Source of the DNA: a virus
Lineage: Duplodnaviria; Heunggongvirae; Uroviricota; Caudoviricetes
Length of the DNA: 22,489 bases
Direction: 5' to 3' (one strand)
Virus record (IMG/VR): IMGVR_UViG_2778261588_000007
Coordinates: 1-22,489 of that record
Made by a program: the position numbers and the translations under genes. Below are positions 12,554 to 21,481 of this stretch, piece after piece. The notes under the pieces were generated by a model that made no database searches, was not told the origin of the DNA, and saw only the letters and a list, made by a program, of their open reading frames with translations. The first letter of the stretch is position 1; each line of letters begins with the position of its first letter.

Positions 12554-14397
12554 TGAAAGTAACTGCAAACGGTAAGACATTTACCTTCCCTGATGGTACG
12601 AGCACGGAAGATATTGGCACCGCCATTGATGAGTATTTTGCTGGTCAGGCTGTTCAGCAACAAACAGTTAATCAGGCCAATAATGAACCAGCACGTGAAG
12701 AACCATCATTGATGCAACAAGCTGGCGATTGGCTCACAGGTGGTCAAAGTGCAGGGCAAATTGCAGAGCAGGCTGGTCGTGGTCTGGTAAACATACCATT
12801 TGACGTATTGCAGGGTGGCGCAAGTCTGATTAATGCAATCAGTCAGGGGCTTGGTGGGCCAAAAGTATTGGATGATGTCTATCGTCCAGTCGATCGACCG
12901 ACAGACCCTTATGCGCAAGCTGGAGAAACAATTGGCGGGTATTTAGTTCCAGGAGTTGGAACGGCAGGAAGCATGGCTATTGGATCACTGGCAGAGGCCG
13001 CAAATCAGAAAGGCGATTTCGCACAAAATGCAGCTAAAAATGCCGGAGTTAACCTTGCCGCTCAGGGTGTTCTTTCCGCAGCAGCAAAGGGAATAGGGCG
13101 TGGAATAACGGCTATAAAAGGTGATATTGCGCCAGAAGTGGCGAAGAAAATAGCCACATCAGAATCGATGGGTGTGACACCAATGACATCTGATGTTATC
13201 CCGCCGAAAAATGCTTTCACTCGCGGACTTACTCAGGATGCCGAGGGGGCTTTGCTCGGGACAGGCTCAAAGCGAGCGGAGCAATATGCAACGCGTAGTA
13301 AGCTGGTAAGCAATTATTTTGACCGTTTTGGTGAGTACAACCCTGATGATGTGGTGAAATCTCTGACCACCACGTTAAGGGGACGGAAGGATGCCGCTGG
13401 CGCTGTTATCAATGACGTCACCAATAAAATGGGTAATGCCGCAGTTGATACCACAAATACCATGAATGCTCTGAATACAGCGATCGCAAGACAGGAACGG
13501 CTTGGGACGTCTGCCAATCAAAGCCTGCTTACATCCTTGCGTAACCTACGTGAAGAATTAGCAAACCCTGCAACTGATTTGGATGTTACGTTTGATCTCT
13601 TGCGCCAGCACAGAACAGCATTTAGATCTAATGTTCAGGGAGATGCTATGGTCTTCCCCAACCAGGCAAAAGCAGCTACCAATATGGTAGAGAATGCAAT
13701 GTCAAAAGACCTTCGTAACGCAGTTGCAAAAAACCTCGGTGCGTCAGACGCAGCAAAATACCTTAAAGCAAATTCCGATTATGCAAACGTTTATAATAAG
13801 GTGCTTAATAAAAACATTGCTAACAAGCTCAACAAGGCAAGCAGTGAAGCCAGTCCTGAACTTATAAATACCGTTGTATTAAGCAGAAAACCATCTGACG
13901 TGAAACGAATCTGGAGCGCATTGGATGATAAAGGGAAAGATGCTATGCGTGCAGCTTACGTCAGCAAAATAGCGGAAAAGGCCGGTGACTCTCCAGCCAA
14001 GTTCATCACTGAAGTTAATAAGCTGAAATCTCAGTCAGGTGGTGAAATTTACAACACTATTTTTTCTGGAAAGCACATGAAAGAGCTTGATTCTCTTCAT
14101 GAAGTTCTACAGCAAACAGCAAGGTCAGACACCGCAAATGTAGTAACTCAGACGGGGCAATCGCAAGCCAACAGGATAAGGACGATTGGCGCAACTGCGA
14201 CTCTTGGCGTATCAATGGGGCTTGAGGCTGGTTTCGGTGCAATGATGCGCTTGTATGAGTCCAAGGCAGCAAGGAATGCTCTCTTACGTTTGGCAAACAC
14301 CAAAGCAGGAACACCAGCCTATGAAAGAGCGCTAAATAATGCTGCAAATGCGATACGCCCTATACTTTCAAGCCAAATTACAGCAGAACAGCAATAA
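12550..14397 (+). CDS. ejection protein, P22 gp16 homolog
   Basis: 615 aa (P22 gp16 about 609 aa); ATGA overlap with gp20; last gene of the + strand late operon. Confidence 0.8.
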
Positions 14398-14411
14398 AAG
14401 ATAAGATATAA

Positions 14412-14897
14412 CTACCTGATATTACTGCTACTGTTGCATGTTACCGTGTTTCCAAATCCTGAATTGCAGTTTGTATATGTGTCAACGCGTGTTGGGTAAG
14501 GTTGAGTTATAACAGGCTGGCGCGCTTTTTGCTCGATCGCTTGCATTGTGTTTACAGCCTGATAATTCAATAAAGCCTGCTGGAATGATTGGCTTTGTGC
14601 TATTTGTTGGGCTTGTTCTTGGCTTTGTAATTGAACATAAAGATTCTGAAGCTCAAGTCTTGCCTGTGCGTCACTTATCTTGCCTTCATTGACACCTTGC
14701 CCGAGCATCTTTGCAGCAAGGACATACAGCTTAGGTGTTGGTGCTGATGCCATGCGTGAGTCGTTCTTCACACTGGCATCAAGGCAATTAGCCATATCGC
14801 TAAGCTTTTGATAGCGTTGTTCGCAACTTGCTTGATAGTCACTTACTTTTGCGCATCCAACCAGCAGAAGCGGGATAATTAACAGTGATTTTTTCAT
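14412..14897 (-). CDS. secreted lipoprotein of unknown function (candidate superinfection-exclusion factor)
   Basis: Start chosen at MKKSLLIIPLLLVGC (ATG at 14897) with AAGGAG about 9 nt upstream; lipobox L-V-G-C; mature part has a Gln-rich predicted helical segment and a C-terminal C-x9-C pair. Sits downstream of mnt on the same strand, at the position of sieA in P22. Confidence 0.7.
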   Translation of the reverse strand: MKKSLLIIPLLLVGCAKVSDYQASCEQRYQKLSDMANCLDASVKNDSRMASAPTPKLYVLAAKMLGQGVNEGKISDAQARLELQNLYVQLQSQEQAQQIAQSQSFQQALLNYQAVNTMQAIEQKARQPVITQPYPTRVDTYTNCNSGFGNTVTCNSSSNIR

Positions 14898-14967
14898 ATG
14901 GTTAACTCTCCTTAGTTTTTCACAGGATATCATGAAGGCTATGCCATTTTAGCCGGAAACTAGATTT

Positions 14968-15234
14968 CTATGTTTCCTTTTTATTATTGCTATACATGGT
15001 CTTAAGCGTTTCAAAAACCATTTTCTTAACCATATCAGATTGTTGTTCTGCCATACGCTCTGCATCGTCAATGTAAACGGATGCAGAGCTTTGTTTAGCC
15101 AATGATTCTTCAATCGCTGCAATTATCTCTGAGTTCAGCGACCTGTTATTCATCTTCGCACGCTGTTTAATTTTCGCGTGGAGTTCATGCGGAAGTCTCA
15201 AGTGAAACTGCGCCTCGTCGTATTTGCTGTACAT
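14968..15234 (-). CDS. mnt: Mnt-like ribbon-helix-helix repressor
   Basis: 88 aa from the internal ATG at 15234; FHLRLPHELHAKIKQRA..NRSLNSEII.AIEESLAK and DDAERMAEQQSDMVKKMVFETLK align with remembered P22 Mnt (83 aa) along its whole length. Confidence 0.8.
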   Translation of the reverse strand: MYSKYDEAQFHLRLPHELHAKIKQRAKMNNRSLNSEIIAAIEESLAKQSSASVYIDDAERMAEQQSDMVKKMVFETLKTMYSNNKKET

Positions 15235-15355
15235 CCTTGATGCCTCACCAGTTGGGTGGAATGGCATCGTAACCTACTGGATAAATACTCAATAGTACCA
15301 TTTCGGTATGCAATCACATCATGGTTGCATCATATCATTCGTCTGGAGCAATGAA
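15235..15355. promoter_or_regulatory. divergent intergenic region between mnt and tailspike; probable promoters and operator
   Basis: 121 bp non-coding; imperfect inverted repeats CCAGTTGG...CCTACTGG (15247-15279) and TGCAATCA...TGGTTGCA (15309-15329); tailspike RBS GGAG at 15345-15348. Confidence 0.35.
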
Positions 15356-17224
15356 ATGTCAGATATCACCGCAAACTTAGTGGTAGGGATGCCTGCGCAG
15401 CTTTTCACGCTGGCACGCTCATTTAAAGCAAATGCCAACGGTAAAATCTATCTTGGGCTACCAGATACCGACCCTACAATCCCAGCGAATCAAATCCCTG
15501 TTTATATTGAAAGTGAAACTGGAGATCTGATTCCGACTGCTCAGCCGATAGTCATTAACGCGGGTGGGTATCCTGTTTACAACGGGCAGATATCAAAGTT
15601 CGTTACTGTGCAGAATTACAGCATGGCTGTTTACGACGCCTATGGATCGCAGCAGTTCTACTTCCCTGACATTGCAAAATACGACCCAGATAAGTTAAGG
15701 CAACAGCTTGAAGGGAGCAATGGCGCTGGATTAGTTGGATTCGATAAATCAGTTGATTACGCAGATGATACGGTTGGGGGTACGCTAAAAAATGTTATAT
15801 TCGTCAATCCTGATATGTATACAACATTACAGGATGCGATTGATTATGCCGCATCTTTAACCGGGCTAGAGCACTCCCCAAGCACTGCTGCTGGTCATCC
15901 AGACTGGATACAACCAAATACTGTATGCAAAGTTGTCAGATTAAATGGAAAGAAATACCCCATAAACACAACATTACATGTTTACGGTGATGTAAGCATA
16001 GATGCAGAATTTGGAGGGGTATATCTCACGGATGACTTCATAGCGGATTCTTCTGGGTATGCTGTTAAATGCGATAAAGGAACAGGTAATCAATACGCTG
16101 GGCACATTAGCAATCTTTTAATTGACGCCCGCGCAAAGACTGTTAATGGATTTAAAATATCTGATGGTTATGCCAACAAGTTAGATGGTATTTACGTAGC
16201 CAACGTTGATGGTCATGGCATTCATATCGCTGGCGGCATGGGTGTTCATCTCATGAAGTTTTACGCGGTAGGTGTATTAAAACCTACGAACCCCCTAAGT
16301 CAAGCCCATATTATTGAAGGCAGCGACCATCAGGTAAGCATGGGTGAAGGTCGTTATTTCCGATTTGGGACGTGGGTGAGGGGTGGCGGTAACAATCGTA
16401 TCGATAAAGTACATAACTGGGGTATGTATGACGACTCGGTAGCTGACCAAAACTCAAGAATGAAGTGTTGCTTTGTTGTGCAAAACTCGATAAACAACTC
16501 ATTCAACCAATGCTTTGCAGACTCTCCGTCAAAATGGGACTACACGAAGGCTAATTTAGATTCGGTAGATGGTTATATTAACGGCGGTATTGGTTTCTTT
16601 GTCGATTCGGGAGCATCGGGTAATACGTTTTCTCAATGTCAGACATTCGTGAATATGAATGCATTCAATGCTGCGGGACTGTCTTCTTACACTGCATCAT
16701 TAATGCCGTTTGCCGTTGGTAGCGTTAACTGCTCATTTGTTGAGTGTGGAAACTCAAACTCACCAGCATGGACAGCAAGGTTGATAAACCATATTTACTC
16801 TATAGACCAGTCGTTTACAAACATCCTGGCAGCTAAGAACTTTGTTGGGATAGAGTACGATATGTTTAGCAATAGCACAATTTTTAGGAGAAGCGTAGGT
16901 GTTCCCCTGCTTGTAGCGTCTCCGAAATTTGACACCCCCGGTGCATCGTATGCGCCTGACTTTTCTAATGCAGCGTATGTGTCAGCAACGGTAACTGGCG
17001 ATGTAACAATAACCCCAGCAGCATTGTCAAATGCGTTAACTGGGTATGTAGAAGTTACATTAGCTGTTTATTCGGCGGCATCAAAAACAATAACATTCGG
17101 GTCTAACGTTAAACTTGCATCAAATACACCGTCGCTTTCATTTTCAGGAACGCAGGTATTTAGGCTTTCAACAATAAACGGCGGCACTCAATGGTTTTGC
17201 AGACTTATTGCTAACTACACATAA
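15356..17224 (+). CDS. tailspike protein: P22 gp9-like head-binding N-terminal domain fused to a divergent receptor-binding domain
   Basis: Start at ATG 15356 ([43 protein letters not shown]), 622 aa. The first ~115 residues match P22/Sf6 tailspike N-termini; the remainder has no P22 similarity I can recognise. Confidence 0.9.
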
Positions 17225-17253
17225 AAAATGGCCCGATGTTTTGGGCCTTTTTT
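17223..17253. terminator. bidirectional intrinsic terminator between the convergent tailspike and gtr operon
   Basis: AAAAAA - GGCCC..(8 nt loop)..GGGCC - TTTTTT, lying between the tailspike stop (17224) and the 3' end of the type-specific gtr gene (17258). Confidence 0.7.
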
Positions 17254-17257
17254 AATT

Positions 17258-18685
17258 TTAACAAACTCTATCGCCATACACGACGATAATATCTTCACCA
17301 ATTTTAAATACATTATAATATCTTGTTTTTATTATTGGTGATGATTTTTTTTCACAAACCTCATTTAACTTGTTAACTTGTACTGTTTTTATCCATGGTG
17401 CCAAATTCTTAACACTTAATTGCTGCATCATTGATACAGCAATCCATGGTACAGCAGGGCTATACACAAATTTGAGGAACGGTGTTGCCTCAATCATTTT
17501 CCAAGTAATAGGAGAGTCGTATATCCTTCCATAAGTGTATACCTCGCCGTTAAAGTCAAGCCTTCCCAAATCATTAGCCACCATCTCCATGACAAATTCC
17601 TCATATTTCCTTTGCTCTTTTATGGCATTTGAAAATTGGAATGAAGTGGTTATGGTGATAAACAACATTACTACAGAAATAAAATAAAAAGATTTTTTTC
17701 CGAATAATTTATATATGGAAAAAATAACTATCGCTATGGATGCTGACGCGCCTGATAGAACCCTTATATCTGTAATCCCTTCCTTTAATAAAAATGCTGG
17801 TCCAGGCAATGCTAATAATAGCGCTAATGGTGATAATAAATTGGATGAGCACTCTAAAAACCCTAGGGATAACTGATGTTTGACCTTTTTAACATAACAA
17901 ACAAAATAGGATAACAATCCAATGTAAACAGGAATCAAAAAAGATATCCCAATGGGTTCTATATATTTAAAAGTCTTATTAATAGATTCATAAAGAGATG
18001 ATGGTATGTCTGCGAATGACACCATTATAGATCTATTGTCAGCACCATATTTCATTATATAAAACATAGTGACATAATATAATGCATATGTTACTACGAA
18101 TGTCAGTGCAAGATGATATGATTTGTTTTTCCCATTACCAAATAAAGCATTGTATGCAATTAATGATATAAATATGTTTGCGCAAGGCTGGTATAAGCTT
18201 AAGCATGAAAATAAAGAAACAATGGATAATAATGACTTTGGAAATGATCTAATGTCAAATACAAAGAATGACAGCATACATAATGAATTTGCTAAAATCA
18301 TCGTTAATGCGTCAAATTGAAAAGACACGTTTTGTATAAACAATGGACTCACAAAAATGATTGTGAGCATAATGGATATCTGCAGAGAGTCTTCTTTTTC
18401 AACAAGATAATTACAAATATAATAAATTATTGCTGATGCAATGAATATACCAAAGAACAACGGAAGAGGAGCAGCGCTTGGTAATAAATCAAAATTAAGA
18501 GAAAAAATATGCATTACAAAATCAGAAAGTGGCCTACCAAGCCCTCCCCATGCAGAAAATGAATATACAGACCTTGCCACATCATCCCTATAAAGGACAT
18601 CAGCAGACACTATTGGGTAACAAAATATAAATATAATTGATAATGGTATGTAAAAATATTTAGAATTAAACATTCCTATTTTCAC
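17258..18685 (-). CDS. type-specific O-antigen glucosyltransferase (GtrC / Gtr-type), polytopic membrane protein
   Basis: 475 aa, many predicted TM helices, strongly AT-rich coding sequence; start overlaps the gtrB stop; third gene of a gtrA-gtrB-gtr(type) operon. Confidence 0.8.
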
Positions 18686-19595
18686 CTTTCTTTAGTATGT
18701 ACTTTGGTCTTTTTTTGGTTTCTATGTATATGCGTCCAATGTATTCACCAAGGACACCAATCCCAATCAATTGAATGCCGCCAAGGAAAAGTATGGAAAC
18801 CAACAGTGACGGGTATCCAGGAACACTATTACCGAAAAGAATCTTATCTAAAATCATCCACGCGCCATAAATGAATGACAGGCTGGCGACAGCAAGTCCG
18901 ATGTATGTCCACATGCGCAATGGGAAAGTTGAGAAGCTTGTTATGCCTTCCAGTGCCAGATTCCATAGCTTCCACCCATTGAATTTTGAGTTGCCGGCAA
19001 CGCGTTCAGCTCTTGCATACTCAACAACATCAATTTTACCGCCAACCCATGACAAGACGCCTTTCATGAAAAGATTGCGCTCAGGAAGCAATTTAATGTT
19101 TTCAACAACTTCTCGCGACATCAGGCGAAAATCACCCACGTTCTCTTCGATTTTTGGGTTGCTAATCTTGTTGTGTAGCTTATAGAACCACTCAGCCGAT
19201 TTGCGCTTTAGCCTTCCATCGGTAGATCGGTCTGTTCTCTTAGCCAGAACCATATCAGCGCCATCCTGCCATTTTTGAATGAGGTGAGGGATGACATTGA
19301 TAGGGTCTTGCAGATCAACATCAATTGGAATGACCGCTTCCCCGGTTGCATTATCAAGCCCTGCAAACAGGGCTGGTTCTTTACCAAAGTTTCGTGTAAA
19401 TGACAGCGGAACAACTAGAGGATCTGAAACGGACAGAGCGTTAATGATTGACTCCGTAGCGTCTTTGCTACCATCATTTATAAAAACAATTTCCACTTCA
19501 TATGGCTTCAACTCTTCGAATTCACGTACCGTTTTATAAAAAATAGGTATCGCTTCCTCTTCGTTGAAGACAGGAACGACCAGAGATATCTTCAT
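18666..19595 (-). CDS. gtrB: bactoprenol glucosyltransferase GtrB (GT2 family)
   Basis: 309 aa; N-terminal GT-A fold signatures ([25 protein letters not shown]) and two C-terminal TM helices; high similarity to remembered GtrB/YfdH. Confidence 0.9.
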
Positions 19596-19954
19596 TTCGC
19601 ATCCCTAAAGACAATGAACTTTGAATAGACGAAACCGCACACTAGGCTGATGGCGGAGAAGGTGACAAGAGTGACAATTGGAGGAAGTGCACATTTATCG
19701 GCAGCCCATCCAACAGTAGCACTCAGTGTTCCCATGAATCCTACATATAACATGTAGCGCATCGTTGTAGTCGAAGCTTTGAATGTGAATTTTGCATTCG
19801 CGAAGAAGCTAAAGCTCACAGCCACAACGAAACCTGCGAAGTTTGCAAGAGCCTGATTGGTGTGCGCGGCATAGATACATACACCAAAAACCACCCAATG
19901 TATAAGTGTGTTCAGCACACCAATCGAGGTGTACTTTGCAAATAGCTTTAACAT
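19592..19954 (-). CDS. gtrA: GtrA flippase-like small membrane protein
   Basis: 120 aa, four predicted TM segments; [20 protein letters not shown]... matches GtrA/YfdG; ATGA overlap with gtrB. Confidence 0.9.
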
Positions 19955-20100
19955 TTCTTCTATCAGCTAATAATCAAAGGCATGAAGTCTATCATCCAAG
20001 CATCAATCGATCGATGACTTGCTGTGGTTGATGAGACAAAACTGAGATACACAAGGCTTTGTGACATTCGATAGTGGTTAAGGTCGATCACTCCACCTTT
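19955..20100 (-). promoter_or_regulatory. gtr operon promoter region, overlapping the 3' end of int; contains GATC sites and ATAG/TCGAT motifs
   Basis: GATC at 20009-20012 and 20086-20089; repeated TCGAT/ATAG-containing motifs (ATCGATCGATGA, TTCGATAGTGG, GGTCGATCACTCC). Confidence 0.35.
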
Positions 20101-21406: not shown

Positions 21407-21481
21407 TGGTGTCCCCTGCAGGAATCGAACCTGCAATTAGCCCTTAGGAGGGGCTCGTTATATCCATTTAACTAAGAGGAC
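21407..21481 (-). tRNA. argW: tRNA-Arg (anticodon CCU), argW
   Basis: 75 nt on the minus strand: GTCCTCT acceptor stem, anticodon arm AGCCC-CTCCTAA-GGGCT (anticodon CCU), T arm GCAGG-TTCGATT-CCTGC, 3' CCA encoded. Folded by eye into a cloverleaf. Confidence 0.9.

Follow-up and report, generated by a model that had tools for sequence, protein, structure and literature searches.

The stretch of DNA analysed here (22,489 nt; hereafter the window) comes from a P22-like prophage located at tRNA-Arg(CCU), of which it represents the late-gene half. Coliphages IME10 and Dewey match approximately half of the window at 95-96% identity. A tailspike gene on the plus strand converges on a minus-strand gtrC ORF, and the ORF list leaves a gap of 33 nt (17225-17257) between the ends of the two ORFs at 17224 and 17258. 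Past this gap, the plus strand runs through gtrC, gtrB, gtrA, a tyrosine integrase gene, tRNA-Arg(CCU) (21407-21481) and a host gene. The features of the junction and its surroundings are as follows.

15356 to 17224, plus strand: tailspike gene, with stop codon TAA at 17222-17224; the longest ORF starts at 15308
17223 to 17228, unstranded: A6 tract overlapping the tailspike stop codon (sequence, minus-strand scan and fold)
17230 to 17247, unstranded: GC-rich hairpin GGCCCGA-TGTT-TTGGGCC (scans and folds)
17248 to 17253, unstranded: T6 tract, followed by AATTTT (sequence and scan)
17258 to 18685, minus strand: gtrC-like serotype-specific glucosyltransferase gene, with stop codon TAA at 17260-17258 (TTA at 17258-17260 on the plus strand)
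18666 to 19595, minus strand: gtrB, bactoprenol glucosyltransferase of family GT2 (Pfam Glycos_transf_2, E 1.6e-30)
19592 to 19954, minus strand: gtrA, flippase (Pfam GtrA_DPMS_TM, E 2e-13), which opens the minus-strand operon leading up to the hairpin
19955 to 20087, minus strand: gtr upstream regulatory region with a putative promoter (P22 promoter annotation), parts of which align with the regions upstream of gtr in P22 and epsilon34

The tailspike assignment is based on a Pfam Head_binding domain (E 9e-56, residues 17-129 of the long ORF) and on the first ~115 residues of the protein, which match the N-termini of the Sf6 and P22 tailspikes (PDB). Translation of this gene probably starts at the ATG at 15356 rather than at 15308, as judged from the GGAG located upstream at 15345-15348 and from the N-terminal protein sequence. 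The gtrC ORF matches Pfam Glucos_trans_II (E 1e-21) and the PHROG 'GtrC-like O-antigen conversion', and its G+C content is 31.8%, as compared to 47.1% for the window. gtrB is 83% identical in nucleotide sequence to gtrB of epsilon34. Within the gtr upstream region, GATC sites are present at 20009 and 20086 only.

The junction reads, from the end of the tailspike gene into gtrC, CACA, the stop codon TAA, AAAAT, the hairpin GGCCCGA-TGTT-TTGGGCC, TTTTTT, AATT, the TTA of the gtrC stop codon and ACAAAC. The core arms of the stem are GGCCC at 17230-17234 and GGGCC at 17243-17247. A GC stem of this sequence, flanked by an A-run and a T-run in the 33 bp between the two stop codons, is what the original prediction had described at 17223-17253, and both the sequence and the ORF list bear out the architecture and its coordinates. 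The T6 tract encodes the U6 tail of the plus-strand tailspike RNA; this tail abuts the stem and reads UUUUUUAAUU from the stem end onwards. The A6 tract is the template for the U6 tail of the minus-strand gtr RNA, and in the fold it is able to pair with the U-tract of the plus-strand RNA. A U-tract therefore follows the stem-loop in the RNA of either strand. The stem starts 5 nt past the tailspike stop codon on the plus strand and 10 nt past the gtrC stop codon on the minus strand, which places the hairpin just past the last gene of both transcription units, as is typical of an intrinsic terminator. With a ribosome terminating so near the stem, folding of the hairpin may be hindered or partly masked during coupled transcription and translation.

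A scan for consensus terminators picked out the site on either strand and ranked it first. In a scan of the whole 22.5-kb window with the same criteria, this was the sole hairpin valid in both directions, with an A-tract, a palindromic hairpin and a T-tract lying between convergent genes. Folding of 17215-17262 gave -16.0 kcal/mol for the plus strand (z -4.99) and -13.7 kcal/mol for the minus strand (z -3.58); for each strand, none of 200 dinucleotide shuffles folded as well. A motif search found GGCCC-N8-GGGCC once in the window, at the hairpin. The bare motif is not rare, with 0.3 matches expected per window by chance, and what carries weight is the complete architecture together with its precise position. 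An Rfam search of the window returned only the tRNA and no family for the hairpin, and a megablast search with 16700-17800 found no match in the phage collection.

The surrounding sequence was scanned for other candidates. On the plus strand, from the end of the DNA-transfer gene (14397) to the hairpin, the only other terminator-like site was a weak one at 16940 inside the tailspike gene. There is thus no comparable terminator from 14397 to 17230, so that late transcription, as in P22, has to pass through the antisense Mnt-region genes before it reaches the tailspike gene. On the minus strand, the scan gave no G+C-rich candidate inside gtrCBA and no better candidate for more than 1 kb downstream of the hairpin. 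A minus-strand site at 17289-17268 was considered as a second terminator and rejected; this site falls within the coding sequence of gtrC, before the stop codon, and has only three G-C pairs and a poor tail. The other convergent junction in the window, between the DNA-transfer gene and the next minus-strand gene, has a 14-nt gap (14398-14411) that contains no hairpin.

The two strands do not encode the same structure.

Plus-strand (tailspike) version: 7 bp (five G-C, one G-U and one A-U), 4-nt loop UGUU, -11.6 kcal/mol, U6 abutting the stem
Minus-strand (gtr) version: 5 bp, all G-C, 8-nt loop, -9.3 kcal/mol, one A and then U6

In the minus-strand RNA, mismatches of the C·A and U·U type replace the G-U and A-U pairs, and only the five G-C pairs are therefore left. 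Both versions fall within the range expected of a terminator stem-loop (a stem of ~5-14 bp and a loop of ~3-8 nt), with the minus-strand version at its lower edge. As predicted structures, the plus-strand version is a textbook terminator and the minus-strand version lies at the weak edge of the canonical range.

The junction was compared to equivalent junctions in characterized phages. In the P22 record (BK000583), a gtrC terminator is annotated on the minus strand at 18214-18245, between the end of gene 9 (18207) and the end of gtrC (18266). Its sequence, TAATAAAAATGGGTGTAAACACCCATTTTTATTTTA, is organized as A5-TGGGTG-TAAA-CACCCA-T5, with a 6-bp stem and a 4-nt loop, and its folding is significant for either strand (z -5.3 and -4.3). 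In both P22 and the window, the tailspike gene faces gtrC-gtrB-gtrA and its stop codon runs into an A-run, after which come a short G+C stem with a loop of 4 nt, a T-run and a short spacer to the gtrC stop codon. However, the P22 stem TGGGTG/CACCCA is unrelated to GGCCCGA/TTGGGCC of the window, and the P22 hairpin is a perfect palindrome, equal on both strands, whereas that of the window is asymmetric. In the epsilon34 record (EU570103), a Rho-independent terminator is annotated on the plus strand only, at 18432-18456, after the tailspike gene 19; such sites in epsilon34 were placed by position and by relatedness to P22 (PMC2629481). The junction is equivalent, with a G+C-rich hairpin in a 35-nt gap before gtrC, but it lacks the symmetry of A-run and T-run (the epsilon34 tail is CAUCUUCUUCU) and its sequence is different. 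By BLAST, the gap and the 3' ends of the tailspike gene and gtrC gave no nucleotide match to the epsilon34 locus. In the window, as in these phages, the hairpin lies between a tailspike gene encoding a Head_binding domain and a convergent conversion gene. Based on the BLAST search for epsilon34 and the stem comparison for P22, the hairpin of the window is best described as the positional and architectural counterpart of these terminators and not as their sequence homologue. Literature searches on transcript 3' ends mapped to the gene 9/gtrC junction of P22, and on the term 'bidirectional terminator' in connection with the tailspike, yielded nothing usable.

To place the element among P22-like phages, a head-binding domain query was used to retrieve 80 P22-like loci from IMG/VR. 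Sixty-eight of these had a complete tailspike ORF and at least 400 nt of downstream sequence, and the next ORF (at least 100 aa) was convergent in 57. Once near-identical junctions had been collapsed, 43 distinct convergent ones with a gap no longer than 160 nt were left. In most cases the tailspike gene faces an O-antigen modification gene (Acyl_transf_3, 21; GtrII, 7; hexapeptide acetyltransferase, 2), and in 3 it faces the integrase gene. A terminator-like hairpin was found on at least one strand in 33 of the 43 junctions, as compared to 4.8 expected from random windows of equal span in the same loci, and a single hairpin valid on both strands was found in 12 (0.09 expected). Fourteen junctions were called on the plus strand only. 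Most of the negative junctions still hold a strong G+C-rich hairpin, with a loop of more than 8 nt or an imperfect T-tail, and four have gaps of 0-2 nt, which leave no room for one. Among 54 further gaps between genes (15-160 nt) at these loci, which include the junction between the DNA-transfer gene and the following minus-strand gene, a hairpin was called on either strand in 5 and in both directions in none. The hairpin sequences found in the survey are mutually unrelated. This recurrence, as compared to random windows and to other gaps, indicates that P22-like phages in general are under selection to keep a hairpin right after the tailspike gene.

Relatives drawn from E. coli genomes and IMG/VR were aligned to the window to determine with which gene the hairpin is inherited. 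Difference maps identified the following block.

17079 to 18900, unstranded: block at least 99% identical to E. coli strains TST3 (L001) and MLI106K1 (L002), spanning the 3'-terminal 146 nt of the tailspike gene, the hairpin, the complete gtrC gene and the beginning of gtrB

The far end of this block, at ~18900, is approximate. Up to 17078, the receptor-binding part of the tailspike gene displays 10-30 differences per 100 nt to the same two strains. The encoded proteins follow this pattern, with 98.5-99.4% identity for GtrC and 88-89% for the C-terminal part of the tailspike. Among the relatives, the single change in the gap is G17238A in TST3, located in the loop. The idea that the hairpin itself is the mosaic recombination joint was rejected, as the joint lies 146 nt upstream, at 17078/17079. 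The hairpin is conserved in four E. coli genomes that are 92% identical, but the 250 nt around it are no less identical, and its conservation is therefore uninformative as to selection on the stem. A GtrC protein scan of the genome contigs found no confirmed relative, and hence no diverged homologous hairpins.

Two relatives (L044 and L046) have no gtr genes. In both, the tailspike gene converges directly on int across a two-way hairpin, GAAAAGGTGGATCACTCCACCTTTTC, which is strong (-16.7 and -20.9 kcal/mol, z -6.6 and -7.2). The window homologue of this hairpin is located at 20078-20100, between gtrA and int; it carries a stem mismatch, has lost the A-run and, at -7.6 and -8.4 kcal/mol (z -1.6 and -0.9), no longer stands out. 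As read from these alignments, the hairpin at 17230-17247 is linked in evolution to the gtrC block and not to the tailspike gene. This linkage fits a terminator belonging to the gtr cassette. Taken together, the low G+C content of gtrC, the gtrC-linked block and the decayed int-side hairpin fit a gtr cassette that brought its own terminator. The hairpin of the cassette would then have taken over the task after the tailspike gene, with the ancestral int-side hairpin decaying.

A moron is reportedly an independent cassette of promoter, gene and terminator inserted in a phage genome, as described by Hendrix and colleagues. The low G+C content of gtrC, its own upstream regulatory region and its co-inherited hairpin resemble the terminators of such cassettes in lambdoid prophages. 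The difference is that the hairpin of the gtr cassette also holds the position at the end of the late operon, such that it would serve two units. Canonical two-way intrinsic terminators of convergent bacterial genes likewise consist of an A-tract, a hairpin and a T-tract common to two units. Nothing essential differs from these, except that the setting here is a prophage in which a late structural gene faces a lysogenic-conversion operon.

Given its sequence and position, the element is likely to be an intrinsic (Rho-independent) terminator with symmetric A/T tracts that would end the gtrABC mRNA and stop plus-strand polymerases, a reading in which we have good, though not full, confidence. 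The original prediction that one hairpin is common to the tailspike and gtr sides and belongs to the two-way class of intrinsic terminators gains support, as a prediction, from the scan and folds of both strands and from the curated P22 and epsilon34 records. One DNA palindrome would encode a stem-loop and U-tail in the RNA from either strand. On the minus strand, transcription originating in 19955-20087 and proceeding through gtrA, gtrB and gtrC would stop at the hairpin, 10 nt past the gtrC stop codon, and would not continue, in antisense orientation, into the tailspike gene and the other late genes. For plus-strand transcription, the hairpin would act as the first credible terminator after the last late gene and would provide the tailspike mRNA with a hairpin 3' end. 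Stem-loops of this kind stabilize mRNA 3' ends, which would apply in both directions. In lysogens of the P22-like prophage BTP1, the gtr genes are expressed at high levels (PMC7067206), and a regulated promoter of its own drives gtr in P22 (PMC2909390).

The insulation of late lytic from gtr transcription, which had also been proposed, is supported only in part. A predicted two-way terminator does lie at the junction, but the gtr direction is the weaker one, the hairpin is tied to the gtrC block and the late direction is made doubtful by antitermination. A polymerase modified by an antiterminator such as lambda Q or P22 gp23 is expected to read through intrinsic terminators. Because such a polymerase is expected to ignore the hairpin, the blocking of true late transcripts is the weakest part of the insulation claim. 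Late transcription in P22-like phages uses polymerase modified by a gp23/Q-type antiterminator (PMC8022706). In the same work, on phage L, terminators inside or at the end of late operons were suggested to mainly attenuate transcription or to stop transcription that is not antiterminated (PMC8022706). The plus-strand hairpin would thus stop polymerases lacking antitermination efficiently and the gp23/Q-modified late polymerase probably only partly. Late transcription passing the hairpin would run antisense into gtrC and would probably be ended by Rho, because this RNA would be untranslated.

The hairpin could alternatively work in one direction, stopping plus-strand RNA, with gtr RNA either continuing unchecked or being terminated by Rho once it enters the untranslated antisense region of the tailspike gene. 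The asymmetry of the two strand versions agrees with this, as do the plus-strand annotation chosen by the epsilon34 curators and the 14 survey junctions called in that direction only. However, the minus strand keeps five G-C pairs and an uninterrupted U6 and was itself called in the scan, the P22 curators gave the equivalent hairpin to gtrC, and the hairpin is co-inherited with gtrC. The A6 tract would also have no role unless read from the minus strand, though part of it is the stop codon. We therefore regard a one-way terminator as unlikely, while granting it an appreciable chance. A related reading, to which we give only a slim chance, is that the asymmetry is functional, with a firm stop for the plus strand and a leaky one for the gtr operon, such that read-through in lysogens would continuously yield RNA complementary to the 3' part of the tailspike gene. 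If so, this RNA could lower the expression of the tailspike gene of the prophage itself or of a superinfecting phage that carries the identical allele. The sequence neither requires nor contradicts this. An analogue for such antisense action is found in BTP1, in which the antisense RNA STnc6030 blocks BTP1 infection (PMC7067206).

Other roles for the stem-loop were weighed against the preferred two-way terminator. Its main role could be RNA stability, with the stem-loop guarding both mRNA 3' ends against 3'-to-5' exonucleases and the ends arising by processing of read-through RNA. This is compatible with antiterminated late read-through and with the presence of a stable G+C-rich hairpin in most survey junctions, even those with a poor T-tail. 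A mere stabilizer has no need of two perfect six-base tails at the stem, and we consider this improbable as the main role; the two roles are not exclusive. Alternatively, the hairpin could do no more than pause polymerases, with termination requiring head-on and trailing polymerase collisions. The geometry is indeed convergent, and a mechanism of this kind has been proposed for many E. coli convergent pairs (bioRxiv 10.1101/2022.10.23.513370). Terminators of that class (Ju et al. 2019, as cited in 10.1101/2022.10.23.513370) are unlike intrinsic ones, however, and the site studied here has a canonical stem and U-tract on both strands. In addition, collisions between a lysogenic and a lytic unit, which are mostly active at different times, would presumably be rare; this reading appears slightly less probable still than a functional asymmetry. 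The least credible reading, and one we would scarcely entertain, is that the palindrome arose by chance, or that it binds a protein or serves recombination, without a role in transcription. The chance expectation given above for the bare motif and the lack of an Rfam family would allow it. It is contradicted by the full architecture placed exactly between two stop codons, by the shuffle z-scores, by the strong positional recurrence of hairpins with unrelated sequences and by the position of the mosaic joint away from the hairpin.

The element is of an ordinary and already recognized kind, here as an unannotated instance with a sequence of its own. Its importance beyond annotation is small: it would mark the 3' boundary of the late operon and of the gtr operon in an E. 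coli P22-like prophage, the public relatives of which carry no regulatory annotation. It is also a clean example of a rule borne out by the survey: in P22-like phages, the end of the tailspike gene is nearly always followed directly by a G+C-rich hairpin, irrespective of the identity of the convergent gene. The hairpin might be used as a compact part for two-way termination, or might help, as a landmark, to delimit tailspike/gtr specificity cassettes.

Comparison with two E. coli relatives, TST3 (L001) and MLI106K1 (L002), revealed a sharp mosaic joint at window 17078/17079, within the 3’ end of the tailspike gene. Up to 17078, the receptor-binding part of the tailspike diverges from both relatives by 10–30% per 100 nt. 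From 17079 to about 18900, identity to both is 99% or higher in a block that spans the predicted two-way terminator hairpin, gtrC and the beginning of gtrB. Diverged tailspike alleles thus accompany a gtrC that is nearly fixed. The G+C content of gtrC (17258–18685) is 31.8%, as compared to 43–45% for gtrA and gtrB and 47.1% for the window, which is consistent with separate acquisition of the serotype-specific gene.

Features located in the window, and the corresponding module in L001, are as follows.

14398–14411: second convergent junction, a 14-nt gap separating the DNA-transfer gene, whose last base is 14397, from the minus-strand ORF 14412–14933
14968–15267, minus strand: small ORF with both Arc-like and Mnt domains (Pfam)
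20078–20100: decayed two-way hairpin remnant, at the int 3’ end/gtrA upstream region
21407–21481: tRNA-Arg(CCU), adjoining the integrase 5’ end
NZ_CP154406.1, 2609–7315: L001 module of tailspike receptor-binding part, hairpin and gtrCBA, equivalent to window 15737–20014

In L001, whose prophage site adjoins yecA/tyrP, this same module is located behind a TipJ-family tail gene. The tailspike-equivalent protein of L001 has 638 aa, of which the N-terminal 143 or so differ from the window’s tailspike; the Head_binding domain is absent from this N-terminus, which matched PHROG tail-fibre N-termini instead. The presence of the module behind another tail gene, with a different N-terminus, means that the specificity cassette has moved between phage tail types. 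Database matches (PDB, Pfam and PHROGs) to the window’s tailspike are confined to its first 115–155 residues or so, and no sequence match was found in any of the three for the receptor-binding part at 15750–17221 (about aa 130–622). The tailspike ORF, at its longest, begins at 15308. The P22-type N-terminus starts later, at the ATG at 15356, which has a GGAG upstream at 15345–15348, and the RefSeq start of the L002 tailspike is at the position equivalent to this later codon.

In two P22-like relatives without gtr (L044 and L046), the tailspike gene and int are separated by a strong two-way hairpin, of which 20078–20100 is the decayed remnant. The remnant has one stem mismatch (GGTCG vs GGTGG) and has lost its A-run, and it folds with z values of about -1 to -1.6, as compared to -6.6 and -7.2 for the counterparts. 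Such decay leaves int without a good terminator before gtrA. The gtr upstream region (19955–20087) aligns in part with those of phages P22 and epsilon34. However, Dam/OxyR phase variation needs the two GATC pairs present in the P22 region (PMC2909390), whereas the region in the window has just the GATC sites at 20009 and 20086. Phase variation in the manner of P22 may be absent from this gtr operon.

No hairpin was found in the 14-nt gap at 14398–14411, which is consistent with late transcription having to pass there to reach the tailspike gene. The ORF on its minus-strand side belongs to PHROG 6067. The Arc-like/Mnt ORF is divergent from the tailspike gene, and arc/ant genes, present between the mnt-type ORF and the tailspike gene in P22 and epsilon34, are absent from this interval of the window.

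Homology to the related coliphage IME10 ends at 21421, within the 3’ end of tRNA-Arg(CCU), a boundary that marks the attachment core. In E. coli MLI106K1 the same tRNA site is occupied, adjoining yfdC.
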